From Thermoplasmata archaeon (GTDB taxonomy: Archaea > Thermoplasmatota > Thermoplasmata > Lutacidiplasmatales > UBA184): a DNA stretch of 51,956 nucleotides. Made by a program: the position numbers and the translations under genes. The DNA lies in NCBI GenBank assembly GCA_028864975.1, contig JAGWLG010000026.1, positions 1 through 51,956 of the forward strand, in the 5' to 3' direction. The notes under the pieces were generated by a model, which made no database searches, was not told the origin of the DNA, and was given only the letters and a program-made list of their open reading frames with translations. Positions 12,215 to 51,956 of this stretch are shown here, piece by piece. Positions within the stretch are counted from its first letter, which is position 1. Every line of letters starts with the position of its first letter.

Positions 12215-12975
12215 GGGCCGCCCCTCCCGGTGGCGCGGCATTCCCCCCGATGGAGCCAGGGACGGACCGCCCTTACATCTGGGTCAACTGCGCGACGAGC
12301 CTCGACGGTCGGCTCGCCTATGCCGGGGGAAAGCGAGCCCGTCTCTCTTCTCCGGAGGACATGGTGCGGGTCCAGGAGCTCCGCCTCCGTGTCGATGCGA
12401 TCCTGGTGGGCGTGGGGACGATCCTTGCCGACGACCCCTCCCTTCGGGTCCACCGGGAGTTGCTCGGAGAGGAGCCCGGCGCCACGCACGATGGCCCTCG
12501 GAGCGGCCCGCTCCGTGTCGTGCTGGACTCCCAGGGCCGCACGCCTGAGGGCGCCAAGGTCCTCGACGGCCAGCAGCCCACCGTGCTGCTCGTGTCCGAA
12601 CGTGCTCGACGGCACTTCCCCTTGTCCGTCACCACGGAGGCGTTCGGGAGGGACCGTGTGGCGCTCCGCCCCGCGCTTCGTTGGTTGAGGCAGAAGCGCG
12701 GGGTCCGCGCCCTCATGGTGGAGGGCGGATCGGAGGTCATCGCGTCGTTCCTTCGCGAGGGGCTCGTCGACCGCCTCACCATCTACTTCGCCCCCAGGGT
12801 CATCGGAGGGCGCATGGCGCCGCCGATGGTCTCGGGTACGGAGACGGAGGGGCCGGAGATGGAAGTCTCGTTGCGGTTCGTCTCGGCCGACCCCCTTGGC
12901 GAGGGTGTCCTCCTCACGTGGGAGCCCAGGGGGACGACAGGCCCCTCCGGCGGGAACTCGCCGCCGCCACGCTGA
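12211..12975 (+). CDS. RibD C-terminal-type (DHFR-fold) pyrimidine reductase
   Basis: RPYIWVNCATSLDG, DAILVGVGTILADDPSL, RVVLDS and LMVEGGSE motifs; ATGA overlap with the ftcD stop. Confidence 0.88.
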   Translation: MRAAPPGGAAFPPMEPGTDRPYIWVNCATSLDGRLAYAGGKRARLSSPEDMVRVQELRLRVDAILVGVGTILADDPSLRVHRELLGEEPGATHDGPRSGPLRVVLDSQGRTPEGAKVLDGQQPTVLLVSERARRHFPLSVTTEAFGRDRVALRPALRWLRQKRGVRALMVEGGSEVIASFLREGLVDRLTIYFAPRVIGGRMAPPMVSGTETEGPEMEVSLRFVSADPLGEGVLLTWEPRGTTGPSGGNSPPPR

Positions 12976-13024
12976 TCGAGCCGGCGCGAAGCAATGTTTA
13001 ACGCGCCCTCACGGTCAGGGGACC

Positions 13025-16000
13025 GTGGCCACCCCCGCGGCGCTCGGAGTGCCTCACGCGGCCGCAGGCTCCCTCCCGATCGGGCGGGAGCGAGAGATTC
13101 GGGCGATCGAGCAGGCGCTTCTCAGCAGCCGTGAGGGACACGGGGGGAGCCTCGTGCTCTCAGGCCCCGGAGGCATCGGGAAGACCTGCCTGCTTCAGTG
13201 GGCCGCCTCGCGAGCAAGGAGCGAGGGGTTCGCCGTCCGCTGGGGCTATGGTCTTCGCGAGACCTTGTCCCCCTTCTTCCCCTTTCAACAGCTCTTTCGT
13301 ACCTCCGGGTCCGAGCCCCGCGAGGGCTCTCCGCCCTCCGACCGGAGCTCCAGGCCCTCGCCGGCAGGAGCGGTGGAGGACGGGACCGTCCTCCTGTTCG
13401 AGGAGGAACGACCCGGTGCCTTCTACGAGACGCTCTCGCTCCTCGCGGCGGAACGACCCGCGCTCCTCGTCGGCCGCGAACGCGCCTCGAGCCTGCGCGA
13501 GCGCTACCCCGGTCTCCGTTCGCTCCAGGAGCACTTGTGGCTCTCTCGGGTCGAGGGCGAGGGGCGCATCCCCCCCAGTCCCCTAGAACTGTTGGCTGAG
13601 CGGCTGGAGCGTTCGCTCCGCGCTCGGTGGGGCTCGGTGGTGGCGCTCGAAGGCGTCGAGTACCTCACCAGCCAGAACGGCTTCGCGAACGTCCTGCGGC
13701 TGGTCCAGTTCCTTCGAGATGTCGCCGCTGAGACCACCGGCAGGCTCCTGCTTTCCATCCGACCCGGTGCGCTCACGCTCCGCGAGCTCAGTGCTCTCGA
13801 GACCGAAGGCGAGGTCCGCCGCGCAGGACACCGGGGAGCGACCCCGGGGGACGAAGGGGCGGGGACCGAGGGGGCTGCCCTCGGCTCCACCAGCGCCGAG
13901 ACCCTGCTACGTCTCCTGTCCCGCCTCGAGCGCTTCGCGTTGGAGGGACCCCAGTTGCTCATCCTGGACGACCTGCAGTGGGCAGACCCGCGGTCGGTGG
14001 TGGCGCTCGGCTTCCTCGCGCGCAACCTCCGCGCCCTTCCGGTCCTGCTCCTCTGCGCCCTTCGCGATGATGAGGAGCCTGTCGTCACCGAAGAAGGGAC
14101 CTCCCTCCCCGAGATGCTTACAGCCCTGGAACAGGAGGGGCTGCTGGAGCGGCTCGACCTGCGCGGGCTTGCCGAAGGCGATGCCGTGCGCCTGCTGGAG
14201 CGCACGCTCGGGGGCTCGCTGGAGAATCCCCGAGGGTCCGCGGCCGTGGAAGAGCTCTTGGAGCGGGCCCAGGGGAATCCCTACTTCTTGGCCGAATGCG
14301 CGAGACAGCTCGAGGAGGAACAGCTCGTGGTCCATGAGGGGGGACGGACAGAGCTCCGTCGCGCTCCCCAGGCCGCGGGAGGACCTATCGGGGCCGACGG
14401 CGCGAGAGGCATCCCTCCGAGCCTGCGACGACTCCTGCTGCGACGGCTCGAGGCGCTCCACCCCCGGGACCGGGAGTTGCTCGAGGTCGGGGCCATCGTC
14501 GGCAGCGAGTTCGACCTCACGCCGATCGTTCCGCTCCTGGGCCGGTCGGAGACGGACCTGCGGACGAGCGCTCGGGAGCTCTGCGACCGCCGTCGTCTGC
14601 TGGAGCGACGAAGGACGCCCGACGGGGAGGAACGATGGGCCTTCGTCCACCCGATGGCGTGGGAGGTGACCCTCCAAGAAAGCACCGCCGAGCGCCGCGC
14701 CCAGCTCGCGAAGGGACTTGCCTCGTGGTGGGTCCTCGCGCGTCCCGAGGAGGTCGACACCGTGGCCCGGCTCTTTCACGAAGCAGGCCATCCTTCCGAG
14801 TCCAGACCCTGGTTCCATCGGGCACTCGACCGCGCGCTCGAGGCCCGGGCGCCGGAGCTTTCCGCGACGTACATTCGCTGGCTGGGGGCCTGCCGCCGGG
14901 CCCGCGAAGCCTCCTGGCCCGAGGTGGGCCTCGTCGAGACCGAAGTGCAGGAGGAGGTCCAGGCCGCGCTCCGCCTCGACTTCCGCGGTGGCCCGCGTCT
15001 CGCCGACCAGCTGCTCGCGTCCCTCTCCGCCGAGGAGCTTCCTTCGGCCGCCCGTGTCGAGGTCCGCGCCGCGCGCTGCTGGACCATGCCGGACTTCGAC
15101 CGTGAGGGCGCGGGGGGCTGGATCGAGGCGACGAGGCGCGAGTTACCGCTCTGCCGCGCTGAACGTAGGGAGGTACTGGCCGCTAGGTTAGGCGCCGCGG
15201 AATCGGTCCTGCGGATCAAGCACGGGGACTGGGAAGGAGGACTCTCGTCCGCCCAGGACGTTCTGTCCCTCCCTGCTGGGGCGGAGGAGGATCGATGGCG
15301 GGCGAGCGGGGCGAGCTCTGCCGGGTGGTGCCTCGTCCAGCTCGGACGGTTCGCCGAGGCCCGCAAGGTCCTGGAAGCGGGGATGGACGTCGCCGAGGCG
15401 AGAGGCCTCGTCGACACCACCGCCTCGTTGTCGAACACCCACGCCTGGCTCGGCTTGCACGAGGGACATCTTCGGGAGGTCCTCGAGGACCTTGAGCGGT
15501 GCATCGTCGTCTCGGAGGCCACGGGGAACTTCCGAAGCGGGGTCGTCTACGAGGCGAACCTCGCGGGGGTCCTCTACGACGTGGGGGAGGTCGCTCGCGC
15601 CGAGGACCTCTACCGCAAGACGCTCGTGACAACGACCCGGTTCCAGTACACGAGCCAAGAGCTCGACTCGCGGGTAGGCCTCGCGGGGCTCCTGGTCTGC
15701 CAGCGGCGCTTCGACGAGGCCCGGAAGGAGGTGCAGCGGGCCGGCGAGCTCGAGCGAGAGGTCCACAGCGACGAGCACACGTTGGAGATCGACCTCCTGC
15801 GAGCCCAGGTTCTCGCCGGACAGGGAGACCTCACGGGCGCGACCGCGTTGGTCGAGGCGTTGGGAGCGAGCGGGGGTGCCCGCGACCCTACCCATCTCTC
15901 CGATCTCCACAGGGTTCGGGCGAACCTCCTGCACTTGGTCGGTCGCCGGAAGGAGGCGGGGGAGGAGCTCGACCGCGCGCTCGAGGCCGCCCGGAGCAGC

Positions 16001-16210
16001 GGGAACCGGGTCCAGGAGGCCTGGACGCTCCTCGGCATCGCGTGGCACCTGGACCGGGCCGGCGAACGGGGGCAGGGTCGAGTGCGCCAGGAAGAGGCCC
16101 GAGCGATCTACCACGAGCTCGGGTTCGAGTCGCCGCTCCCCGAGGAGGTCATGCTCGATGCCCCGGAGCCCGTCGTGCCGACCCCGCTCCCCCCGAGCGC
16201 TGCCCCCTGA
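13025..16210 (+). CDS. STAND/AAA_16-type ATPase with an inserted DUF835-like domain and C-terminal TPR-like repeats
   Basis: IGREREI, Walker A GPGGIGKT, Walker B LLILDDLQWAD, AQGNPYFLAE, helical repeats; DUF835-like WLSR..P..LE..LEGVEYLTSQNGF..LRD lies between the two Walker motifs. GTG 13025 start is tentative. Confidence 0.85.
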   Translation: MATPAALGVPHAAAGSLPIGREREIRAIEQALLSSREGHGGSLVLSGPGGIGKTCLLQWAASRARSEGFAVRWGYGLRETLSPFFPFQQLFRTSGSEPREGSPPSDRSSRPSPAGAVEDGTVLLFEEERPGAFYETLSLLAAERPALLVGRERASSLRERYPGLRSLQEHLWLSRVEGEGRIPPSPLELLAERLERSLRARWGSVVALEGVEYLTSQNGFANVLRLVQFLRDVAAETTGRLLLSIRPGALTLRELSALETEGEVRRAGHRGATPGDEGAGTEGAALGSTSAETLLRLLSRLERFALEGPQLLILDDLQWADPRSVVALGFLARNLRALPVLLLCALRDDEEPVVTEEGTSLPEMLTALEQEGLLERLDLRGLAEGDAVRLLERTLGGSLENPRGSAAVEELLERAQGNPYFLAECARQLEEEQLVVHEGGRTELRRAPQAAGGPIGADGARGIPPSLRRLLLRRLEALHPRDRELLEVGAIVGSEFDLTPIVPLLGRSETDLRTSARELCDRRRLLERRRTPDGEERWAFVHPMAWEVTLQESTAERRAQLAKGLASWWVLARPEEVDTVARLFHEAGHPSESRPWFHRALDRALEARAPELSATYIRWLGACRRAREASWPEVGLVETEVQEEVQAALRLDFRGGPRLADQLLASLSAEELPSAARVEVRAARCWTMPDFDREGAGGWIEATRRELPLCRAERREVLAARLGAAESVLRIKHGDWEGGLSSAQDVLSLPAGAEEDRWRASGASSAGWCLVQLGRFAEARKVLEAGMDVAEARGLVDTTASLSNTHAWLGLHEGHLREVLEDLERCIVVSEATGNFRSGVVYEANLAGVLYDVGEVARAEDLYRKTLVTTTRFQYTSQELDSRVGLAGLLVCQRRFDEARKEVQRAGELEREVHSDEHTLEIDLLRAQVLAGQGDLTGATALVEALGASGGARDPTHLSDLHRVRANLLHLVGRRKEAGEELDRALEAARSSGNRVQEAWTLLGIAWHLDRAGERGQGRVRQEEARAIYHELGFESPLPEEVMLDAPEPVVPTPLPPSAAP

Positions 16211-22826: not shown

Positions 22827-22953
22827 GGTCCCTCCCCCCAGGGTCGCCGACCCCGCGGTGAGGCCCTCACAAAGCGTTCGTTCGTCTTCGGACGTCCGAT
22901 TTGCCGTCAATACCCTTTTAGGCTAGGCGTACGTTGGCGTGCCAATCCTCGGC

Positions 22954-25900
22954 ATGTATCGGCGGCGCAACCCCCTCCACGGCGTGGCCGTCCTCGTCGC
23001 GTGTGCGGCGATGCTCTTGGGAGCGGGGCAGGGGGTCGCGGGGGTACGAAGCTCGAATCTCGCTCCCGCGTTGGGGGTCCCACCCTCGGTCCTGAGCGGC
23101 GGTTCCGCTCTTTCCAGTGGGGGTGGTAGCTCCTCTCCCGGGGTTGTGAACCTCGCGAGTCAGCTCGGCCACCTGGTGGTCCCCGATGGCACGTGCAGTT
23201 CTGGGCGGGGCGGCACATGTCCTCACCTCCAGACGGCGATCAGCGTGGCTCCGAGCGTCATCTGCCAGGTCGGAACCACCTGCCCTGCGGGCGTCCCTCG
23301 TTGGACCAACGTGACGATCTGGGCGAACGCGACCGGGCACTCTCAGCTCGTCTACCCCCCGAAGGTCCAGGTCATCTTCGACATTGAGACAACCCTCTTC
23401 GACGGCGTCTACGATCCGACAGCGGGGGACGTCGGGCTCTCCTCGTGCAACGGACCGTGCAAGGAATCGAACGCCGTCCCCTTCTTCGTCGCGAACGCGG
23501 GGACGATCGCGAAGGACATCACGGGGGACTTCCCAGGGAGCAATGTCACCTTCGCCATGGTCGATTACTTCTCGACAAGCAACATCGCTCCCCCCTCCTG
23601 TACGACCGGGGGGTCGTACACGGGGGACCATGACGACGGCGACGGGTGTCAGTACCACGTCGACTTCAAGAACTTCGTCGACGCCACCAAGTTCGGTACC
23701 CTGGTGCCGCCCTATTTCGCCAACTACACCCTAGGGAACGGGGCCGCGAGCTGCACGACCGGGGCACAGCCTCCGGTGATGTACTGCGACAGCGACTTCT
23801 CCGACAACACACTGGACTCCTCCTCCATCACCTCGCTCTACGGAGCGCTCCAGGGGAGCGGGATCCAGGTCGACAAGAAGGCCGATGTGGTCATCGTCTG
23901 GATGGGGTCAACGGCACCCCGCGACCCGAGCTACACCGTGGACTACACGCCGTTCGACGCCGATGCGAACACGGGCACGTCGGCGACCTGCGAGCCCTCC
24001 TTCAACTACATCGTGAGCGGCCTGGTCTCGCCGAATTGCGAGGGCTGGGTCACCCCGACGACCGCGAACTACTCGATCGCGGACCTCGCGCTCAGCAAGA
24101 CCCCCAAGATCCTGATCAACACCGTCGTGCTGGATACCGGGACCACGCTTCAGACCGGTGGTGACTATGTGCAGCCCACGAGCGCGGCCGCGACCCAGGA
24201 CACCACGAACATCGTGAAGGCCGCCTGCGACCTCGCGACGGCGACGGGGGGTGCCTGGGCAGGGCCGGTCGGCTTCTCCTGCAACGGCGCGAGCGGCTAC
24301 CTCTCCGGCGGTTTCATCCCGGCGGGGTCCGAACAGAACCCTCCGACCGCGTGGAGTTCCAACCCCCTGTTGGGAACGGCCCTGACCAACGTGCGGTTCC
24401 CTCTGGGCTGGACGAACTCCACCGCGAACGGGGTCACCACCAACGACACCTTCCAGTTCATCCCGGAACCGGGATTCGCGATCCCCCGGGGCGCGAGCTA
24501 TACCCTGGCTTCGTGCTACCGCTCCCCTACGAACCCGGGGCTCCCTTGGCCCTGCCCGAGCAGCCCGAACGCGACGGGCCTCGCCAACGGGGGGGTCGGA
24601 TGGGCCTGGCCCCACAATGCGACGGAGGACGCGATGTACCTCAACGACAGCTGGGGCGTGACCTTCCCGGTGGAGGCGACCGCGGCGCTCAACAGTTCCT
24701 TCGTGGGGGTCCCGGTCCCCGTGGATGCCTGCCAGGCCCAGCTCTTCCCGTCCTGCACGGGTCCGGTCTCGGGAAGCATCTCCGCCGCGAACTACCTCCC
24801 GTACACGAACGCCCCTCCGCCGGTCTCCGCCTCCTTCCCCGCAGGGACCGTCACGGTCTACGACACGGGCCCGGTTGTGCGCATCTCCGCCGCCCCCTCG
24901 AGCGTCGACGTACGTCCGGTGGTACCCATGCCCGGGGTCTACTCCACGGTCCTCACCGCGTCCGTCCTCGGAGGCAGCGGCATCTACGGCTACGGCTGGT
25001 CCGGCCTTCCCCCCGGCTGCTATGCGGCCGACCTCGCTTCGGTGGTGTGCTCTCCGACCAGCACCGGGACCTACACGGTCTCGGTCGCGGTCACCGATTC
25101 ACACAACGTGACGGGGACCGCTTCGTTCACGCTCGTGGTGCATCCCGATCCGGTGGCCGTGCTCTCCGCCACCCCATGGGCCGGTCCCACGCCCCTCTTC
25201 ACTGTGGCCAACGCCACCATCACCCAGGGCCTCGCCCCCTACAAGGTCGACCTCTCCTGGGGCGACCGGTTCAACGACAGCACGTCGCTTCCCGCTCACC
25301 ATGCCTACCTCCTTGCCGGGACCTACCACCTGGCGCTCACGGTCACCGACGCGGTGGGAGGAGAGGCCTTCTCCTCGCTTTCCGTGGCCCCCGTGGTTCC
25401 TCTTTCCGTGGGGCTCAAGGTGTTGCCCAACTCGGAACCTTTCGAGCAGCGCAACGTGGCGTTCAACGCGACCATCTTGAACGGGTCCGGTCTCTTCCCC
25501 TACTTCTTCTCCTGGTCCGGGCTCCCCGGCGGCTGCATCGGGGGGAACCTCGCCCAGATCACCTGCGCTCCCACAGGGCCCTCTCCCTTCGCGGGTACGA
25601 CGGTCACCGTCTACGTGCAGGACTTCGCCGGCGAGAACGCCTCGGCCACCCAGGTCATCCATATCCGTGCCCTACCCATTGTCGTCCTCGTCCCCATCGT
25701 CGGATGGGTCCCCGAGGACAAGCTCGTCTCGGACCTGGTCACGGTCCTGGTCGGGTTCTTGGTCGGGCTCATCGCCTACTTCGTCCTCATCGCGGTCTAC
25801 CGCTACGCTCGCGAGCGTACCGGCAAGGACGAGGACGAGGGGCCGAGCGGGAGACCCCCGCCGGGGCCGTCCCCCGTCGCGGCCCTCGCCGCCCCAGCGC

Positions 25901-26133
25901 CCGCGGCGGTCGACGCGGGACCGCCCCCCGGGGCACCGTCCGTCGAGGAAGGTCCGCCCTCCGTTCCCGGAGAGCTGCCCCCGGCACCGCCGTTCGTCGT
26001 GCCCGAGGGCCCTCCCCTCCCTGGGTCGAAGGATGCGCCGCTCCCTTCGAGCGATGAGCCTGGCGGCGACCCGAACGCAGCTCCTACCGGGAGCGATGCT
26101 ATCCCGGACCCGTCCGCTCCCCCGTCGCCGTGA
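22954..26133 (+). CDS. Large cell-surface protein: signal peptide, VWA-like domain, PKD/Ig-like domains, TM anchor, Pro-rich tail
   Basis: VQVIFDIETT..VTFAMVDY..DVVIVWMGSTAPRDP resembles a VWA fold; YGWSGLPPGC and HHAYLLAGTYHLALTVTDAVG are PKD-like; C-terminal TM present. Confidence 0.8.
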   Translation: MYRRRNPLHGVAVLVACAAMLLGAGQGVAGVRSSNLAPALGVPPSVLSGGSALSSGGGSSSPGVVNLASQLGHLVVPDGTCSSGRGGTCPHLQTAISVAPSVICQVGTTCPAGVPRWTNVTIWANATGHSQLVYPPKVQVIFDIETTLFDGVYDPTAGDVGLSSCNGPCKESNAVPFFVANAGTIAKDITGDFPGSNVTFAMVDYFSTSNIAPPSCTTGGSYTGDHDDGDGCQYHVDFKNFVDATKFGTLVPPYFANYTLGNGAASCTTGAQPPVMYCDSDFSDNTLDSSSITSLYGALQGSGIQVDKKADVVIVWMGSTAPRDPSYTVDYTPFDADANTGTSATCEPSFNYIVSGLVSPNCEGWVTPTTANYSIADLALSKTPKILINTVVLDTGTTLQTGGDYVQPTSAAATQDTTNIVKAACDLATATGGAWAGPVGFSCNGASGYLSGGFIPAGSEQNPPTAWSSNPLLGTALTNVRFPLGWTNSTANGVTTNDTFQFIPEPGFAIPRGASYTLASCYRSPTNPGLPWPCPSSPNATGLANGGVGWAWPHNATEDAMYLNDSWGVTFPVEATAALNSSFVGVPVPVDACQAQLFPSCTGPVSGSISAANYLPYTNAPPPVSASFPAGTVTVYDTGPVVRISAAPSSVDVRPVVPMPGVYSTVLTASVLGGSGIYGYGWSGLPPGCYAADLASVVCSPTSTGTYTVSVAVTDSHNVTGTASFTLVVHPDPVAVLSATPWAGPTPLFTVANATITQGLAPYKVDLSWGDRFNDSTSLPAHHAYLLAGTYHLALTVTDAVGGEAFSSLSVAPVVPLSVGLKVLPNSEPFEQRNVAFNATILNGSGLFPYFFSWSGLPGGCIGGNLAQITCAPTGPSPFAGTTVTVYVQDFAGENASATQVIHIRALPIVVLVPIVGWVPEDKLVSDLVTVLVGFLVGLIAYFVLIAVYRYARERTGKDEDEGPSGRPPPGPSPVAALAAPAPAAVDAGPPPGAPSVEEGPPSVPGELPPAPPFVVPEGPPLPGSKDAPLPSSDEPGGDPNAAPTGSDAIPDPSAPPSP

Positions 26134-31794: not shown

Positions 31795-34128
31795 GTGGAG
31801 AGGCCCTGGGCTCTGGAGTTGAAGGTGGAGGAGCTTAGGTCCGCCCCGGCCGAGGAGGAGCGCCCTCCGATCGGAGCCTCTCCCGAGGAATCCAGCGCCA
31901 TCCCCCGTCCCGCGGACTGGCCCCTGGAAGGGCTCGACCTCGCCGTCCACGACCTGCCCCACGCCTCCTCGATCATCGAGTGGTGGTACTTCAACACCCA
32001 TCTTCGGACCGAGGACGGGCGCCCGTTCGGGGTCTTCGCCTCCTTCTTTCGATTGGTTCCCAAGGTCGACGAGCGCACGCAGCAGCCGATCCACGCCCAC
32101 GCCCTGACCTGGGCTGTGAGCGACCCGACCACGAAACGCTACCTTTCCGACGGGCGTGTCGAGTCCGCGTTCCGAGCGTGGGGCCTGGAGCGTCTGCGCA
32201 AGGGGGAGGGGACCCCCGACCCTAGGCTCCGTCGGTCGATGGAGGAGATCCTCCAGCGTGGCAACATCCCCCTTCCCGACCGGGCCTTTGGCGGGAAGGT
32301 CGAGGTCGCAAAGGACCGTCTCGCCCTGGACTTCTCAGGCTCGACGCTCTCGAAAGGGGAGGACGGATCGTACCACCTCCACCTCTTCGGGGAGAAGGCG
32401 ACCGGAGACCTCACCTTCCGCCCGAAGAAGCCCCCCATCCGCCACGGACGCGATGGCGTCTTCTATGGCCCGCTCGGGGACGACATGTTCTACTACTTCA
32501 TCCCACGGAACGAGGTCGAAGGAGAGGTCACGCTGGAGGGGAAGACCGTCAAGGTCTCGGGGGAGGGCTGGTACGACCACGAGTTCGGAGGGCACCGCTC
32601 CGACCCTCGGCGCTATCGCCCGGCGAAACGCGACACGGCTTGGAACTGGTTCTCCGTTCAGCTCACCGACGGCCGCGAAGTGACTGCGTTCATCTTGGAG
32701 GAGCTCTCGACGCGGCGGGTCCTCGACAGCATCGGGATCCTGGTCGAGAAGGACGGGTCCTCCACGCGGACCCCCGAGGTCTCCGAGGGGGTCACCCGCT
32801 GGTGGCAGAGCGTCCGGACCTTCGAGCGCTATCCTGCCGAGGGGTTCCTCAAGATCCCGAAGCTCGGGGTCGACCTGGAGCTATGGTCAACCTTCGAGGA
32901 CCAGGAGTTCGTGACCCTGATCTCCAAGCCGTCGTTCTGGGAGGGCCAGGCGACGGTCCGCGGTCGGATCGGCGACACCCCCGTCCAGGGGATGGCCTAC
33001 TTCGAGCACAGCGGGTATTCGACGACGGAGACCCTCCCGGACTTCTTCAACGCGGTGGGGAGGATCGTACGGCGCTCGGTCTTCGACCTCCTCCCCGAGC
33101 GGCCCACGCCCCAGCAGGCGCTCGAGCTCTTCGCGAGCCGGGAGCACCCGTGGATGCTGGACGGACTCGAACCGGACCGGCTCTCGCGCAACGTCTTCGA
33201 CCCGGTCCGCGAGATCTCGAAGCGGGGAGGAAAGGCCTGGCGCTCCTACGCGGCGCTGGCTTGCTGCGATGTCGTGGGGGGCGACTCCCGCCGGGCGACG
33301 CGGTGGTTGGGCCTGCTCGAGATCCTCCACACCGCTTCGCTCATCGTCGATGACGTGGAGGACCGCTCGGAGGTCCGACGGGGCGGGCCCGCGGCCCACG
33401 CCATGTTCGGCACGGCGCTCGCCATCAACTCCTCCAACGCGGCCTACTTCATGGGACAGGGGCTCGGGACCGACGACGAACGGCGGGAGTTCACGCCAGA
33501 AGAGAAACTTCGCGTCTACGACCTCTACTTCGAGGGGATGCGCGCCGCCCACGCGGGGCAGGCGCTCGACATCGCCGGCTGCGATGACCTCGTGGACGAG
33601 ACCGTCCGAAGCGGGGACTCTCGGAGGCTCGAGGCTCATATTCTCGGGGTCCACCGGTTGAAGACCGGGGCTCCGGTAGCGGGGCTCGCCCGCATGGGGG
33701 TCATCGCGGGGAAGGGAACGAAGCCGCAGGAGGACGGGCTCGGCCACTTCTTCGAGAGCTTGGGGATCGCCTTCCAGATCGTGGACGACGTGCTCAACCT
33801 GCGGGGCTTCGAGGGGAAGCTCAAGAATCTGGGCGAGGACCTCTCCGAAGGCAAGGCGACGCTCCCGGTCGCGAAGGCCTTGGGCCGGCTCGATGCGGAA
33901 TCCCGAACCTCCTTCGTCCAGCTACTGCGAGAGCACACGAAGGACCCACGGGTGCTCCGGGGGATGGTCGACACGCTCGAGAGGGTACATGCGCTCGACG
34001 ATTGCCTCACGCAGGCGCGCTCGCTCATCGAGGACAGCTGGGCCGCGGTCCAGCCGGTCCTCCCCGACAGCCTCCCCAAGATGATGCTGAGGGCTTTCGG
34101 CTGGTACGTGATCGAACGGCAGTACTAG
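31795..34128 (+). CDS. Fusion of a CrtC/AttH-like lipocalin double-barrel domain and a trans-isoprenyl diphosphate synthase
   Basis: N-terminal PH..EWWYFN, GWYDHEFG, WNWFSVQL, FWEG; C-terminal HTASLIVDDVEDRSEVRRG, KTG, FQIVDDVLN and GEDLSEGKATL, in one uninterrupted 777-aa ORF. Confidence 0.88.
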   Translation: MERPWALELKVEELRSAPAEEERPPIGASPEESSAIPRPADWPLEGLDLAVHDLPHASSIIEWWYFNTHLRTEDGRPFGVFASFFRLVPKVDERTQQPIHAHALTWAVSDPTTKRYLSDGRVESAFRAWGLERLRKGEGTPDPRLRRSMEEILQRGNIPLPDRAFGGKVEVAKDRLALDFSGSTLSKGEDGSYHLHLFGEKATGDLTFRPKKPPIRHGRDGVFYGPLGDDMFYYFIPRNEVEGEVTLEGKTVKVSGEGWYDHEFGGHRSDPRRYRPAKRDTAWNWFSVQLTDGREVTAFILEELSTRRVLDSIGILVEKDGSSTRTPEVSEGVTRWWQSVRTFERYPAEGFLKIPKLGVDLELWSTFEDQEFVTLISKPSFWEGQATVRGRIGDTPVQGMAYFEHSGYSTTETLPDFFNAVGRIVRRSVFDLLPERPTPQQALELFASREHPWMLDGLEPDRLSRNVFDPVREISKRGGKAWRSYAALACCDVVGGDSRRATRWLGLLEILHTASLIVDDVEDRSEVRRGGPAAHAMFGTALAINSSNAAYFMGQGLGTDDERREFTPEEKLRVYDLYFEGMRAAHAGQALDIAGCDDLVDETVRSGDSRRLEAHILGVHRLKTGAPVAGLARMGVIAGKGTKPQEDGLGHFFESLGIAFQIVDDVLNLRGFEGKLKNLGEDLSEGKATLPVAKALGRLDAESRTSFVQLLREHTKDPRVLRGMVDTLERVHALDDCLTQARSLIEDSWAAVQPVLPDSLPKMMLRAFGWYVIERQY

Positions 34129-46874: not shown

Positions 46875-49800
46875 TCATCCAGGCGGAGCCGGTTCCTCCG
46901 GGGGAGGCCCGGAGGGAACCTCTTCCGCCCCTGCCCATGCCGAGGGCGGTCCCACTTCGGGCGGTCCGCGGCGTTTGCGGAGCGCGACCGCCATCAGAAG
47001 GGCCGCGGCGGCCACCGCCGCGATCAGAAGGCCCCAGAGCAGCCAGGGGATCCCCAGCAGACCCGCGCTCGAGGGGTTCGACTTGGTGGAGGACGGAGGG
47101 GCGACCGTGATCGTGATGGTCGCATGACCGACCTTGGCCGCGGCATCGGTCACGTTCAGGAACACCGTGTAGGTCCCGGCCGTGTGGAAGACGAAGCTCG
47201 TGTTCTGCGTCGACGCCGCGCCTCCCCCTCCGAAGCTCCAGGACCAATGGTAGGGCGGGGTGCCTCCCGCCGCGCCCCCGACGAAGTTGACGGTCAGCGG
47301 AGCCGTCCCCGAGGTGGGAGAGGGGGAGATGGTCGCCGTGGGGTTCCCCGGTCCGCTCCCGCCGCCGCCCGAGACCACCACCGAGGGGAGGGTGTAGGTC
47401 TGCGTGTGGGAGGCGGCGTCCGTAACCCCCAGGGTCGGCGTGAAGGTCCCCGACGCCGTGTACGAGTAGGTGAACGAGGGGGTCGCTCCGCTCTGGGTCT
47501 GCGTCGCGCCGTTGCCGAAGTTCCATACGTCAGAGTACGGAGCCGTCCCCCCGCTCACGGTCCCTGTGAACGTGACGGAGAGCGGCGCATTTCCGGTCGA
47601 GGTGGACTCGGAGGCCGAGACGGACAGCGGGTTCGGGGCGCTGACCGTCACGGTAGCGTTCAGCGGCACAGGACGGTCGAAGCCGTGGGTGATCATCACC
47701 GAGACCTTCCAGGTCCCTGCGGTGGAGCCCGCGGTCAGCGTCGTGGTGTTCCCGGTGCCCGTCGTGGAGAGCGTCCCCAAGGAGGCGCTCGAAAGGGACC
47801 AGGTATAGCTGCAACCGGAGAGGGGACGGCCGAACTGGTCGATGCCCTGGGCCCAGAACTGTTGGGTGGCTTGGGCGGCGAGGGTGATCGTTGTCGGGGT
47901 CTCGGTGCCGGACTTGAGAGCGGGGGCAGCGCTCGTGATGGTGACCGCGGAGCAACCCATCTGGGTCGTGCCGCTCCAGGTCACGTTCACACAGACCACC
48001 TCCGTGCCCAGCGTCGTCCCGGCCGCGAAGGCGACGTCCGTGGTGCCGGAACTCGAGTTGAGGGTCCCGAGCGCCGCATTGCTCAGGGTCCACTGGAAGG
48101 TCGCCGACGGAGGGTAGACCTTCCCCCCGGCCGACGTCGCGGCGGACGCGTGGAGGTTCGCGGTCCCGCCAGCCTGGACGCTCGGCCCCTGCGGGCTCAC
48201 GGTCGCCGAGGCCAGGGTGATGGAGGAGACGATGCTCGCGGGAACGCAGGCCAGCAGGGTCCTCCCCGAGTAGGTCGCGTTCTCGCAGATGTTGCCGGTC
48301 CCGACACTGGTGGCCGCGTTCCAGGTGGTCGTTGATCCGGGACCGGGGGAAGTGAGGGAGCCCAGGGAAGCGGGGTTCAGGCTCCACGCGAAGGTCGTCC
48401 CGGAGATCGAGTTCCCGCCCTGGTCGAGCGCGGTTGCCGTGAGCACGACCGAGCGGCCAGGGGTGGTGGCCGCGGGGTTCGGGGAGATCGACGTGGTCGT
48501 GAGTACCGGGGTTCCCGTCCCGGTCGCGCAAGGAACACGGGGGTCGAGGCACCTCCAGACCGGCTCGAGCGGGTTCCCTTCAGCGAGCTGGTCGTCGACC
48601 TGCATCGGGAAGGTGACCTTCGTGAGCTGAGAGCTGAAGATCGAGGGGTTCACGTTCATCTCGACGCGCTCCATCACGGCCAGAACGTTCGACGTGTTGA
48701 ACGTCGGGTGGACGACGTTTCCGCACGTCCCGCTCGTGAGACCGCAGGAGGCAGGGTTCGGGTTCCCCGTCTTCATGACGTTCGGTGGAGCGACCAGGAC
48801 GAAGGGGAACCTACGGCCGTTGTTGACGTGGTCCGGACCGTTCTGTCCGTCCTGGGTGTCGTCCTCGGAGATCGCGACGACGGTGTTGTTGCGATAGGTG
48901 CTGGTGCCGTTGAAGATGTCCTCGAGGATGAGGTTCATGGACTGGTCGTTCCACTGGATGCAGACGTCGTAGGAGACGCCCCCCGGGCATTGCGGGCCGG
49001 GGTGGTCGTCCGGGAGCCGGATGTACGTATAGGTCGGGAGCCCGTAGTCGGCGACGTAGGAGACGAAGCCGTAGGCAAGGTCCTGGTCTGCGATGGGCTT
49101 GAGTGCGCTGCAGGCGTCCTGGCAGACGAAGAGCATGTCGGGGATGTTCGTCGCGGGGTTGGTCACGGGAGGGATGGGGTTCACGGCCCCAGAGGTCGTG
49201 TTCGTCCACCAACCCTGGCTGCCCGTGCAGGTCAAGTGCTCCACAGCGACACTGTCGTGGGGATAGGGCCCAGGGATGCCGGTGCTGCTTGCGACACTGC
49301 AGCCCGGGGAGTCGAGCTCCCAGATGATGTCCCCGTCGATGAGGTAGGGGAGCGGTCCCCCGCTCTGCTTCACGTTCGGCCCCGTGAACCGGTCGAAGAC
49401 GCTCCCGTCCGAAGGGTAGTCCTGGGATCCGTCAGGGTACCACCCACAGTACCCGCTCTTCGCGCTCGAGCCGTTGTAGACCCCCCACTCCGTCGAGGGG
49501 CCATTCCCTTGAACCGTGGTCGAACATCCGTTGATGCCTCCATTGGTGTTGGTGTCGGCCGCGAGCAGGAAGGAGTGGGCCTGGGCGGAGTACGGATCCA
49601 CGCTGGAGTACATGTTGTCGAAAACGCTCCCCGTCTGCGCCCACTGGTGCAGGAAGGGAACATCGGCGATGTGGTTCGTCTGGCTCGTGTAGTCCTGGTT
49701 GTCGTTGCAGCTCTCGTTGATCGTGGAGTGGCAGTCCCCGAGGTAGTCGTCGAAGACGTGGTTCTCGCGAACGATGTAGACGAAGTGGGTCAAGTTGCTC

Positions 49801-49976
49801 GGGAAGGGCGGCAACCCATTGGCGAGAGGGGTGGCATCGACCGGCGCAGCGCCAAAGCCAGGGGTCGTGGTCGCCCCGGCCGATCCGCTCGAGCTCGTGC
49901 CGTGTACGGGAGGGAGGACCGTTACCGCCGCGATCGTCAGGGCAAGAGCCGCCCAGGTCCGTTTCGTGAGCCGCAT
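46875..49976 (-). CDS. Cell-surface phosphoesterase (phospholipase C / acid phosphatase-like) with Ig/PKD stalk and TM anchor
   Basis: YIVRENHVFDDYLG, LPDDH, ISEDDTQDG..DHV motifs; Ig-like SISPNPA/VSPQGP repeats; PKD APLSVTF..WNFGNG; C-terminal TM followed by RKRR. Confidence 0.85.
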   Translation of the reverse strand: MRLTKRTWAALALTIAAVTVLPPVHGTSSSGSAGATTTPGFGAAPVDATPLANGLPPFPSNLTHFVYIVRENHVFDDYLGDCHSTINESCNDNQDYTSQTNHIADVPFLHQWAQTGSVFDNMYSSVDPYSAQAHSFLLAADTNTNGGINGCSTTVQGNGPSTEWGVYNGSSAKSGYCGWYPDGSQDYPSDGSVFDRFTGPNVKQSGGPLPYLIDGDIIWELDSPGCSVASSTGIPGPYPHDSVAVEHLTCTGSQGWWTNTTSGAVNPIPPVTNPATNIPDMLFVCQDACSALKPIADQDLAYGFVSYVADYGLPTYTYIRLPDDHPGPQCPGGVSYDVCIQWNDQSMNLILEDIFNGTSTYRNNTVVAISEDDTQDGQNGPDHVNNGRRFPFVLVAPPNVMKTGNPNPASCGLTSGTCGNVVHPTFNTSNVLAVMERVEMNVNPSIFSSQLTKVTFPMQVDDQLAEGNPLEPVWRCLDPRVPCATGTGTPVLTTTSISPNPAATTPGRSVVLTATALDQGGNSISGTTFAWSLNPASLGSLTSPGPGSTTTWNAATSVGTGNICENATYSGRTLLACVPASIVSSITLASATVSPQGPSVQAGGTANLHASAATSAGGKVYPPSATFQWTLSNAALGTLNSSSGTTDVAFAAGTTLGTEVVCVNVTWSGTTQMGCSAVTITSAAPALKSGTETPTTITLAAQATQQFWAQGIDQFGRPLSGCSYTWSLSSASLGTLSTTGTGNTTTLTAGSTAGTWKVSVMITHGFDRPVPLNATVTVSAPNPLSVSASESTSTGNAPLSVTFTGTVSGGTAPYSDVWNFGNGATQTQSGATPSFTYSYTASGTFTPTLGVTDAASHTQTYTLPSVVVSGGGGSGPGNPTATISPSPTSGTAPLTVNFVGGAAGGTPPYHWSWSFGGGGAASTQNTSFVFHTAGTYTVFLNVTDAAAKVGHATITITVAPPSSTKSNPSSAGLLGIPWLLWGLLIAAVAAAALLMAVALRKRRGPPEVGPPSAWAGAEEVPSGPPPEEPAPPG

Positions 49977-50113: not shown

Positions 50114-50923
50114 ATGGAATCCAAGACCGTCCCCCCGTCGCTCTCCGTTTCGCGCGAAGGGAGCGTCGCCGTCGTCGCCTTCGACCGACCCGAGCGGCTG
50201 AACGCCTTCGGCTCCGAAGAACTACGGACGCTCCGTCGGACCCTCGGCGAGCTCTCACAGGACACGAGGGTACGCGCCGTCGTGCTGACCGGGCGAGGAA
50301 AGGCGTTCTCGGCCGGCGGTGACGTGGCGTCGATGCAGGAGTGGCTCAGGAAGGGTGACCTCCCCACCGCGTTCCACGACCTGGTCGGAGAGCAGGAGCG
50401 CTGCATCCGAGAGATCATGGAAATGGCGAAGCCGGTCCTTGCGGCGATCCCCGGGGTCGCCGCGGGGGGTGGACTCTCCATGGCGCTCGCGTGCGACTGG
50501 CGCATCGCCGCGCCCGAGGCGACCCTGGTGACCGCCTTCCTCCAGCTCGGGGGCATCCCGGACGGGGGCCTCACCTATCTGCTTCCTCACTACCTCGGGA
50601 TAGGGGGTGCGCAGGAACTTCTGTTCGGTCCTGGGAAAGTGAAGGCCGAGCGCGCGCGGGAGCTAGGACTCCTTCACGAGATCGTCCCAACGGAGCGATT
50701 GATGGCGCGGGCGCTCGAGCGGGCGACAGAGCTCGCGAAATTGCCACTCTCCTCCTTCGGGTGGACGAAACGGCTGCTTGTGACCTCGTACGGGGGCACG
50801 CTCGAGACGCAGCTCGCGCTGGAGCGTCGCGGTATGGTCGAGGCGGCCCGTGGGAAGGAACTGCCAGAGGGGATCGCGGCCTTCCTCGAGAAGCGGCCAC
50901 CGAGGTTCGAAGCGATCGGTTGA
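50114..50923 (+). CDS. Enoyl-CoA hydratase/isomerase (crotonase; PaaG-like)
   Basis: RPERLNA, FSAGGDV, AAGGGLSMALACDWRIA and GGIPDGG motifs. Confidence 0.92.
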   Translation: MESKTVPPSLSVSREGSVAVVAFDRPERLNAFGSEELRTLRRTLGELSQDTRVRAVVLTGRGKAFSAGGDVASMQEWLRKGDLPTAFHDLVGEQERCIREIMEMAKPVLAAIPGVAAGGGLSMALACDWRIAAPEATLVTAFLQLGGIPDGGLTYLLPHYLGIGGAQELLFGPGKVKAERARELGLLHEIVPTERLMARALERATELAKLPLSSFGWTKRLLVTSYGGTLETQLALERRGMVEAARGKELPEGIAAFLEKRPPRFEAIG

Positions 50924-51009
50924 CCTCCCGGGACCTACCTGAGCGTGCCCTTGCGATTGTGGGGAGCGCACCGACGGCGATATCAAGCCCCGAGAGGGAT
51001 GACGTTGCG

Positions 51010-51956
51010 ATGCGCCGGACCTGGAGGAGACTCCTTCTCCCCTCGGCATCTCTCCTCGTCCTCGTGCTTTCGCTCTTCGCGACCACCGTTGCGGGTCCCT
51101 CCCCTGGTCCAGCGGTGACATCAAGAGCCGAGAACTTCCGCCCCGACCTCACCTCGCCCGGCACCACCTACGTTCCCGTTCAGCTGAGCTTCAATCCCTC
51201 GCCAGCCGACGGAGAGGTCTTTGTCTCGAACGGCTCCACGGTGCTGACGGAGACCGCGAACACCACGCTTCACCTGGCCGTCGGCAGCTATCCCATCTCG
51301 GCGCTAGCCGCGAAGGGGTTCGTCTTCAGTCTATGGGTGACGAACGGAGAGATCTCGGTTTCCGCTCCGAACGCCTCCTCCTCCACGCTGACGGTCACCT
51401 CGGGGGGCGGTAGCCTCCAAGTGCAGTTCGTCCTCGCGCCAGGGTCGAACGGATCTCTTTCCATCTGGATTTGGGTCGGCGTCGGCACCATCCTGGTCGC
51501 CATCGTGGTCGCCACCCTGATGTGGCGACGGACAAGGTCAGGTTCGTCCTCCCGAGAATCCTCGCCCGTCCAACCCCGCTCTGGCGGCACCGCTTCCCCC
51601 CGTCCATCCCTCGACCGATGGCCCAAGAGCTCCCTTTCCGTCTGGGAGCGGGTGCATGAGGAGGAGCTTTGGACCGCAGTGCGGTCCGGCCCGATCCCAG
51701 CCGCCTCGCTCCTCTGTTTCACGTGGGGCCGGGCGGACCGCGTCGCCACGAAGTACGGCCTCGGAGGAGCGAAGGTCGTCCGGCTTTCCCGTAGCGACTC
51801 CGCGGACGCATCCGATGATCGGGTCCGACCGAGCGACCTGGACCGATTGGCGGACCACATCGAGAAGCACCTTCTGCTCGGCGAAGGTCGAGGGGTGGTC
51901 CTTCCTGGCGTCGAAGGGCTGGTCGCGGCCTCGGGGATCAAGAACGTGAACCGGCT
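51010..51956 (+). CDS. Single-pass membrane protein: signal peptide, extracellular beta domain, TM, cytoplasmic DUF835-like domain (3' truncated)
   Basis: Hand-translated open frame from ATG 51010 to the window end: MRRTWRRLLLPSASLLVLVLSLFA signal; IWIWVGVGTILVAIVVATLMWRR TM; then VVRLSR..RVRPSDLDRLADHIEKHL..GVVLPGVEGLV. Missing from the ORF track because it has no stop in the window. Confidence 0.8.
   Translation, partial: MRRTWRRLLLPSASLLVLVLSLFATTVAGPSPGPAVTSRAENFRPDLTSPGTTYVPVQLSFNPSPADGEVFVSNGSTVLTETANTTLHLAVGSYPISALAAKGFVFSLWVTNGEISVSAPNASSSTLTVTSGGGSLQVQFVLAPGSNGSLSIWIWVGVGTILVAIVVATLMWRRTRSGSSSRESSPVQPRSGGTASPRPSLDRWPKSSLSVWERVHEEELWTAVRSGPIPAASLLCFTWGRADRVATKYGLGGAKVVRLSRSDSADASDDRVRPSDLDRLADHIEKHLLLGEGRGVVLPGVEGLVAASGIKNVNR

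Follow-up and report, generated by a model that had tools for sequence, protein, structure and literature searches.

A STAND NTPase of a Thermoplasmata archaeon with a DUF835 (iKaiC) domain nested in its nucleotide-binding domain, and a candidate KaiC-like partner

Switches of the STAND/NLR class are usually described as an effector, a NOD module and a sensor in series, with the output carried at one end of the protein. At positions 13025-16210 (+) of the window, by which is meant the entire 51,956-nucleotide stretch of Thermoplasmata archaeon DNA that was analysed, a gene encodes a 1061-residue AAA_16/TPR STAND NTPase. An earlier note, made from the letters alone, had placed a DUF835 block between the Walker A and Walker B motifs of this protein, and the question raised by the locus is what a domain nested at such a position contributes to a molecular switch.

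The gene occupies a single open frame (12896/13025-16210, +), and GTG 13025 is its likely start, since it is also where the public gene call (P0002) and every relative start; TTG 12896 was rejected as a start, as it would create an overlap with the upstream RibD_C reductase gene, which ends at 12975, and relatives start at the GTG. A TATA-box-like TTTAA, read from the sequence at 12997-13001 (+), 24 nt 5' of the GTG, may be the promoter for a leaderless transcript. A frameshift or an artefact joining two genes was also considered and discarded, the same layout being present in the 14 intact paralogs of the genome and in about 57 representative clusters. The pairing of DUF835 with AAA_16 was matched in 21 of 21 family members and therefore reflects neither a chance match nor a frameshift artefact.

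The NTPase itself is intact. Pfam matches AAA_16 at about 60 bits (cut-off 32.6) in two stretches that flank the insert, all features described here lying on the forward strand. The N-terminal half of the nucleotide-binding domain (NBD; 13079..13300), drawn from the first AAA_16 stretch, the invariant residues and the structural model, comprises strand 1, Walker A (GPGGIGKT, 13163-13186), helix 1, strand 2 and an ISM-like helix marked by the conserved motif WGYxLxExxxPFFPFEQxF (13241-13297), with modelled strands at residues 41-47 and 70-75 and helices at 53-66 and 85-90. The C-terminal half (13892..14224), placed by invariant residues and the model, comprises helix H2 (residues 290-307), strand 3 (310-315), which carries Walker B (LLILDD, 13955-13972), strand 4 (340-347), at the end of which lies R347 (14063-14065), presumed to be sensor 1, and strand 5 (375-378). 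Across the 21 members G47, G50, G52, K53, T54, D315 and D316 are invariant, as are W319, D321 and R347, and both Walker motifs fit the GxxxxGK[ST] and hhhhDD patterns of STAND proteins. A helical domain and then a winged-helix domain follow (14225..14749), as the motif, the model and the match to PH0952 agree, the former bearing the GxP motif (GNP, 14273-14281) in which G417 and P419 are invariant and N418 nearly so. The arm and TPR-type sensor (14750..16129) complete the protein, with TPR_12, TPR_2 and TPR_MalT matches at the C-terminus and an all-helical solenoid of hairpins modelled from residue 576 to 1035; it is here, at 22% mean identity, that the family diverges most. The full-length model (pLDDT 82) contains a complete NBD from which the insert stands apart, folded on its own and flanked by disordered tethers, and its best PDB match is PH0952 (6mfv, Foldseek E 3e-10), followed by Avs3. 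No further domain that might act as a terminal effector was found by Pfam in this protein at E <= 1, nor any other effector domain in the 21 inserted members at E <= 0.001.

Much of what the earlier note had read from the sequence is thus borne out: the STAND ATPase at this locus, with AAA_16 and TPR matches and intact Walker motifs; Walker A at about 13163-13186; Walker B, which it had extended to about 13987; the TPR-like repeats at the C-terminus; and the lack of an HTH, kinase, nuclease or cyclase domain, which held down to E = 1. Of the checks that it had suggested, the domain-HMM comparison matched AAA_16, DUF835 and TPR families alike, and prediction of the monomer placed DUF835 apart from an intact NBD. 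The note had made its reading depend on the insert being DUF835, and Pfam (PF05763) matches residues 139-261, nt 13439-13807, between the Walker motifs, at 74 bits (cut-off 33.1, E 1.2e-20).

The insert as a whole, delimited by Pfam, the domain model and an alignment of DUF835 domains (A2), spans 147 residues (121-267 of 1061; 13385..13825) and enters after the ISM-like helix, past strand 2, and before the helix H2 that precedes Walker B. It is joined to the NBD by two tethers of about 20 residues each, the first (residues 93-116, 13301..13372) predicted to be disordered at pLDDT below 50 and 14-16% identical among paralogs, and the second (residues 268-288, 13826..13888) likewise predicted to be disordered and unconserved on comparison of model and paralogs. 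The DUF835 signature is kept (R151, WLS, P184 and GxEYLxSQNxF in alignment A2), and the domain model (pLDDT 93) has a KaiC/RecA-like alpha/beta core whose best structural match is FlaH (4yds; Z 14.5, rmsd 3.4, 150 of 157 residues aligned), with 4wia (Z 13.6), PH0284 (12.9), KaiC (12.6) and RecA also matched; Foldseek with the same model recovered RAD51 paralogs, PH0250 and FlaH. Strand 1 and helix 1 are connected by a loop of sequence EEERPG, in which GK[ST] is missing, and the P-loop is absent throughout alignment A2. Judged from its modelled fold, the insert is a P-loop-less KaiC/RecA domain, that is, an inactivated ATPase. Profile comparison of alignment A2 with an alignment of KaiC-like proteins (A3) by hhalign gave no signal (probability 0.7%), and the kinship of DUF835 with KaiC rests on fold and literature; a PDB sequence search with the DUF835 profile returned nothing significant, the single hint being FlaH at E 0.43. 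The domain has already been named inactivated KaiC, or 'iKaiC', and described as an output domain of archaeal response regulators, associated with REC (PMC5847659, 2018), and the earlier note's description of DUF835 as uncharacterised is accordingly out of date.

The 3.6-Mb genome carries 14 STAND paralogs with the insert and six without it, and in the latter the flanking motifs are present without the DUF835 block, which is therefore a true insertion. Identity among members is 44-46% in the insert and 43-54% in the NBD, falling to 22% in the TPR part and 13-20% in the tethers, and over about 57 clusters (50% identity) the insert is as well conserved as the NTPase, which indicates purifying selection upon it. 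In all 14 of the other DUF835 proteins of the genome the domain forms the C-terminal cytoplasmic end, whereas here it is internal. A count of the architecture across genomes, also suggested in the earlier note, found it in 7 of the 401 genomes of the class that were sampled, in only three genera of one Thermoplasmata family; a search of genome contigs returned, among the matches listed, mostly bacterial AAA_16 proteins and one Thermoplasmata MAG. The component parts were known beforehand, and the lineage is uncultured and narrow. A single origin of the insert was put to an AU test, which rejected monophyly of the inserted forms (p 0.021), the backbone of the tree being unresolved, and an uninserted paralog (C104:100664) is sister to an inserted one (P0021) with an SH-aLRT of 100, as the pairwise alignment also indicates. 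We read this as one gain followed by at least one loss in which the gene was retained; two gains are the alternative.

A candidate partner emerges from gene order. Four genomes of one sister genus (loci G005:C57, G010:C69, G015:C31 and G020:C63) each have a STAND-iKaiC gene that is followed on the same strand, after 31-73 nt, by a gene for a KaiC-like ATPase; a fifth locus in that genus (G024), at a contig end, fits the same layout, and in one genome of a second genus (G012) the two genes stand tail-to-tail. The KaiC-like ATPase is conserved and single-copy, with the P-loop GxxGTMKS, and its orthologs are 72-79% identical between genera; where two of the adjacent STANDs were compared directly they were 36% identical and their KaiC neighbours 79%. 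The adjacency involves one paralog per genome in two genera that are related and hence not independent, and neither the STAND gene at 13025-16210 nor any paralog in its genus adjoins a KaiC-like gene, which in this genus overlaps a gene for a HAD phosphatase. The present genome also has a DUF835 gene at a distance of 4.6 kb from its KaiC gene; this was dismissed as coincidence, with QueC, DUF92, M14 peptidase and DNA methylase genes, all housekeeping, between the two. Because a STAND-iKaiC gene adjoins its gene in the sister genera, the GxxGTMKS ATPase is put forward as a candidate partner; the gene pairing is new here. Among the papers that it covered, a literature search found none joining a STAND NTPase with KaiC, the report of Makarova et al. 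(2017, mBio), which PMC5847659 cites, being outside its coverage.

On balance we lean towards reading the protein as a cytoplasmic STAND switch of the MalT/PH0952 type in which the nested iKaiC domain is the output and acts by clustering onto a KaiC-like ATPase. Binding of a ligand at the fast-diverging TPR sensor would be the first step, and would lift the autoinhibition imposed at the tip of the NBD, permitting exchange of ADP for ATP and oligomerisation; in the oligomer the iKaiC domains would be exposed and clustered, and could then bind to, or assemble together with, a KaiC-like ATPase, for which the GxxGTMKS protein is the best candidate, and by which the signal would be passed on. The 14 paralogs of the genome would in this way connect different sensors to one hub. 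The insert probably takes the place of an output attached, as is usual, at one end of the protein, and may connect the switch with a small KaiC-like ATPase. That it serves as an output or adaptor, as the earlier note had proposed, finds indirect support because archaeal response regulators are known to use DUF835 as an output domain (PMC5847659), because it is conserved like the NTPase while the sensor diverges, because matches to a wHTH effector are confined to uninserted paralogs (a MarR-like match in three of the six, below the Pfam gathering score, and in no inserted member), and because paralogs in sister genera adjoin the KaiC-like gene. Counting against the reading are the lack of a KaiC-like neighbour in the genus of this gene, the relatedness of the two genera with the adjacency, the missing profile signal between DUF835 and the KaiC-like family, and the position of the insert at the ISM tip, which would suit regulation equally well.

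Indeed, a regulatory or input role is a live rival, if an unlikely one, because the insert occupies the ISM tip, flanked by the ISM-like helix and H2, and it is there that related STANDs are held shut by their sensor and arm (PMC6468293). In PH0952 and MalT this tip bears the autoinhibitory contacts of the NBD with the sensor and with the arm (PMC6468293), and the insert might provide a latch or docking site that lets a KaiC-like ATPase, or some other factor, control nucleotide exchange or oligomerisation, with scaffolding by the oligomer or the TPR surface as the output. Adjacency to the KaiC gene is silent on the direction of signalling, and on the relationship of C104:100664 to P0021 the insert has disappeared at least once from a gene that itself persisted. 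Against this, the inserted members have no other candidate output, DUF835 is elsewhere a terminal output-type module, and long, unconserved, disordered tethers favour a domain that is freely presented over one that is tightly latched.

A role in immunity or conflict, which the earlier note had raised as an alternative kind of switch, fares less well. Under it the TPR paralogs would bind invader proteins much as NLR or Avs sensors do, and clustered iKaiC domains would be toxic or abortive, for instance by poisoning KaiC/RadA-type ATPases; the 14 paralogs in a 3.6-Mb genome, their hypervariable sensor (22% identity) beside a conserved core, the second-best structural match to Avs3 and the patchy, lineage-specific distribution are all compatible with it. 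The surroundings speak otherwise: the neighbours of the STAND gene are housekeeping genes (RibD_C, FTCD, FAA hydrolase, PriS and RIO), no conserved neighbours and no defence island were found around the 20 paralogs of the genome, and PADLOC matched no system, giving only BrxD at 18.5 bits, at the level of the P-loop, and PDC-M16B at 13.7 bits. A toxic effector is not recognisable, the nearest relatives in sequence are AAA_16 regulators with fused LuxR, SARP or cyclase domains, and the adjoining partner is a conserved, housekeeping-like KaiC, so that an immune function appears improbable. That the insert is neutral or decaying, an accidental capture without a function of its own in a loop that tolerates both states and has lost it at least once, is scarcely credible for a domain as conserved as the NTPase across the roughly 57 clusters, with its signature residues kept and its fold confidently modelled.

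The STAND-iKaiC family shows that an output-type module can be housed inside the NBD, at the very tip that resting STANDs keep latched; if the nested domain is indeed an output, its exposure from an autoinhibited ISM tip would be a new way of coupling the opening of a STAND protein to its effector. The family also joins two poorly connected areas, the archaeal STAND ATPases and the proposed KaiC 'hub' networks. To our knowledge the KaiC-hub hypothesis has had almost no experimental handle so far, and the operon pairs of the sister genus offer a concrete, clonable pair of proteins with which it can be tested. A many-to-one design can tentatively be sketched, in which at least a dozen cytoplasmic STAND receptors, each with its own diversified TPR sensor, and the membrane receptors whose C-terminus is DUF835 converge through the same pseudo-KaiC module on one conserved KaiC-like ATPase with the atypical P-loop GxxGTMKS, itself paired with the HAD phosphatase in this genus; if true, it would amount to a KaiC-centred pathway with a logic comparable to that of two-component or NLR-inflammasome systems.

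Parallels with systems already described are instructive in placing this protein. Avs3 (PDB 8DGC) shares with it the STAND core and a TPR-like sensor, but Avs proteins bear N-terminal nuclease-type or other effectors and belong to a defence context, neither of which applies here. The bacterial AAA_16-TPR regulators, fused to LuxR, SARP/AfsR, adenylate-cyclase or Ser/Thr-kinase domains, come closest in sequence to the NTPase once the family itself is set aside (28-40% identity across the two halves of the NBD) and are, like the archaeal proteins, signalling STANDs with multiple paralogs, yet their effector is terminal, the insertion site holds a short native linker, and they form a starred clade separate from the archaeal family. 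The closest structural parallel, PH0952 of Pyrococcus horikoshii (PDB 6MFV) together with MalT, has the same order of NBD, helical domain, winged-helix domain, arm and TPR, the same Walker A, Walker B and GxP motifs, and AAA_16 (PMC6468293), although the relationship in sequence is distant; opening and multimerisation driven by ADP/ATP is presumed to be held in common, whereas the terminal DNA-binding effector of those proteins is missing here and a 147-residue KaiC-fold domain is nested instead. That domain belongs to the same Pfam family (74 bits) as the known iKaiC/DUF835 forms, with the same signature motifs and P-loop-less KaiC/RecA fold, and in both settings it is presumed to transmit toward KaiC-centred networks; in the known forms it stands at the C-terminus, behind REC, PAS or membrane sensors, whereas in the present protein it is internal, within the P-loop NTPase domain of a STAND switch.

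P0002, the gene under study, is a single gene of 1061 codons on the forward strand (13025-16210), and the GTG at 13025, already chosen in the earlier note, appears to be its right start: a longer frame from TTG 12896 overlaps the RibD_C reductase gene on its upstream side (end at 12975), all aligned relatives begin about 45 residues ahead of Walker A, and there is a TTTAA 24 nt ahead of the GTG. The same note's placement of the Walker motifs also holds, with GPGGIGKT at nt 13163-13186 and LLILDD at nt 13955-13972. Pfam matches DUF835 at residues 139-261 (74 bits, cut-off 33), AAA_16 in two separate stretches (about 60 bits, cut-off 32.6) and several TPR families, with no further Pfam domain down to E = 1. 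Searches with NCBIfam and PADLOC returned only weak matches, respectively a generic one to the STAND portion of TOMM kinase/cyclase and one to BrxD at the level of the P-loop. The closest named genome, among the matches listed, is a Thermoplasmata MAG, and family members carry no public names beyond 'DUF835 domain-containing protein' or 'TPR repeat protein', all from Thermoplasmatota. The neighbours of P0002 are archaeal housekeeping genes (FTCD, RibD_C, FAA hydrolase, PriS, KH protein, RIO kinase, PAC2). Elsewhere in the window, a 777-aa protein (31795-34128, +) fuses CrtC-type lipocalin domains (CrtC N-terminal domain and Lipocalin_9) to a polyprenyl synthetase, an unusual combination that adjoins the heme-biosynthesis genes for GluTR and ferrochelatase, and two proteins of about 1050 aa (22939-26133, +; 46875-49976, -), whose annotation consists solely of Pfam matches to PKD domains near the C-terminus, are likely surface proteins.

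Motif conservation, structure prediction and the existence of uninserted paralogs together establish that the DUF835 block is genuinely inserted in an NTPase that remains intact. The layout is common to 20 relatives at 36-46% identity, and in their alignment with P0002 the Walker A and Walker B motifs, W319, D321 and R347 are invariant, as are G417 and P419 of the GNP motif, with N418 nearly so; R347, at the end of strand 4, is the presumed sensor 1. The full AlphaFold2 model, built on the relatives' alignment (mean pLDDT 82), has a complete nucleotide-binding domain (NBD), running from strand 1 through helix 1, strand 2 and a short helix to the insert and then helix H2 and strands 3, 4 and 5, followed by the helical domain (HD), the winged-helix domain (WHD), an arm and a TPR solenoid. 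In this model residues 121-267, the insert, form a well-folded separate domain between disordered tethers (93-116 and 268-288). Compared as a whole with the PDB, the model comes closest to the STAND-TPR protein PH0952 (6mfv, E 3e-10), with Avs3 next. The window's genome (3.6 Mb in 124 contigs, 90% complete) encodes 14 inserted and 6 uninserted paralogs, the latter keeping both the WGYxLxExxxPFFPFEQxF flanking motif and the helix ahead of Walker B, with only a short linker where the block would be.

Modelled by itself from an alignment of stand-alone DUF835 proteins, the insert reaches pLDDT 93, and its best structural match is the KaiC-like ATPase FlaH/ArlH (4yds, Z 14.5, 150 of 157 residues aligned), ahead of FlaH (4wia, 13.6), RecA (3cmu, 13.4), PH0284 (2dr3, 12.9) and KaiC (8dba, 12.6); Foldseek independently retrieved RAD51 paralogs, PH0250 and FlaH. 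The insert has EEERPG at the expected P-loop position, and GK[ST] is absent there throughout the DUF835 alignment. Sequence comparison gave no significant link to KaiC: hhalign gives a probability of 0.7% between DUF835 and the KaiC-like family, and the best PDB match to the DUF835 profile is FlaH at E 0.43. The P-loop-less KaiC-like fold predicted here agrees with Galperin et al. (2018, PMC5847659), who regard DUF835 as an inactivated KaiC-like domain, name it 'iKaiC' and list it as the output module of response regulators with the layout REC-DUF835, from Methanomicrobia and Thermoplasmata.

With the insert as query, 1.84 billion representative sequences yielded 1195 DUF835 relatives. Among the best 150, about 57 (one of them N-terminally cut) measure roughly 870-1080 aa, have DUF835 at about residues 40-270 and so share the architecture of P0002; the remainder carry DUF835 at the C-terminus. 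At the level of whole genomes, the complete arrangement of Walker A, insert and Walker B was found only in genera g1, g3 and g5 of one GTDB family, and in 7 of the 401 genomes that sample the class. DUF835 itself is present in 40 of 41 related genomes. The 28 DUF835 matches in the window's genome divide equally into nested domains and C-terminal ones, the latter 14 behind membrane, extracellular or Zn-ribbon N-termini. Genus g8 has 24-37 matches per genome. The top DUF835 scores (E about 1e-37) belong to a protein of some 1350-1440 aa that recurs, conserved, in several Thermoplasmata families; it starts with a signal/TM segment and has DUF835 at its extreme C-terminus (G025, G027, G029, G031, G033, G040 and others; C124:32278-36567 in the window's genome). 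The window itself ends within an open frame of at least 488 aa (50491-51954, +) that probably encodes a further signalling protein with DUF835 at the C-terminus; its last part, cut by the window end, matches DUF835 weakly (E 2e-5), and Pfam at E 1e-4 gave no match to the partial protein.

When the insert columns are left out of the tree, archaeal paralogs with and without the insert form one clade (SH-aLRT 99) apart from the AAA_16 proteins of bacteria. P0021, an inserted paralog, has uninserted C104:100664 as its sister (SH-aLRT 100), with 47-48% identity either side of a clean gap, and monophyly of the inserted forms is rejected (AU test, p 0.021); the sequences therefore indicate that the insert was lost, or gained, more than once. 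Mean identities among members are 43-54% for the NBD, 44-46% for the insert, 13-20% for the tethers, 37-39% for HD/WHD, 30-31% for the arm and 22-23% for the TPRs, so that, judged by sequence, this is a family with a conserved NBD engine and insert and a diversified sensor.

The 20 paralogs in the window's genome have no conserved neighbour. Its GTDB family encodes a single-copy KaiC-like ATPase (72-97% identity within the family, 50-58% across the class) with an unusual P-loop, GxxGTMKS, in which Met replaces the Gly before Lys. In four genomes of g3 (G005, G010, G015, G020) an inserted STAND gene lies 31-73 nt upstream of this gene on the same strand; a fifth (G024) has the matching layout interrupted by a contig end, and in G012, of g5, the sole inserted gene is tail-to-tail with it, 39 nt apart. 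Compared directly, the STANDs of G010 and G020 are 36% identical and their KaiC neighbours 79%. In the window's genus no STAND gene is adjacent, and the ATPase gene (C119:31555-32283, -; locus L088 7053-7784) overlaps by 17 nt a gene for a HAD-family phosphatase (L088 6458-7069, -); in g1, g2 and g7 a similar-sized gene follows in the same manner, and KaiC-like ATPase and phosphatase may be a signalling pair. A second, weaker case, in the window's genome, is a 693-aa protein with a KaiC-like part and a C-terminal DUF7090 match (C65:6507-8588, +; L086 8-2089), 62 nt upstream of the inserted paralog C65:8626-12498 on the same strand. On another contig (locus L087), the gene for a 677-aa Zn-ribbon protein ending in DUF835 (C28:1683-3716) is followed after 540 nt, in the same orientation, by one for a 240-aa single-domain KaiC-like ATPase (C28:4256-4978) that is 37% identical to the GTMKS protein.

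Resting STANDs are closed and ADP-bound, and inducer binding relieves the autoinhibitory NBD-arm and NBD-sensor contacts, so that multimerisation becomes possible; in PH0952, with element order S2, ISM, ISMb, H2, S3, the TPR sensor caps the ISM/ISMb/H2 tip and the arm stacks on it (PMC6468293). Read from secondary-structure order rather than superposition, the iKaiC domain would sit at this tip, between an ISM-like helix and H2. Its location at a capped tip, together with release of autoinhibition in STANDs, leads us to propose opening plus exposure: sensor release would open the NOD (NBD, HD and WHD) and also free or cluster the tethered iKaiC domains, which would engage the KaiC-like ATPase, a member of a ring-forming family, so that many STAND sensors could converge on a single hub. 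Position at the tip allows equally well that the insert is a latch or input element and not an output, a reading we consider rather unlikely. An immune role, for which paralog expansion is the sole point in favour, is more doubtful still. None of 21 inserted members has another effector domain.

No description of an output-type domain nested inside an NBD, or of an operon joining such a STAND to a KaiC-like ATPase, was found in the searchable literature; the nested architecture is a well-supported, real feature. Its parts are known: a MalT/PH0952-type STAND, a TPR sensor and the DUF835/iKaiC output domain. Three of the six uninserted paralogs have a terminal MarR-like wHTH match (E about 1e-5, below the Pfam cut-off), N-terminal in C29:86589-89738 (-) and C-terminal in C97:38346-41528 (+) and C115:47702-50830 (+). 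If these matches are real, insert and wHTH are complementary in distribution, and it is by this weak wHTH that the three uninserted proteins resemble the PH0952-type transcription-factor STANDs.
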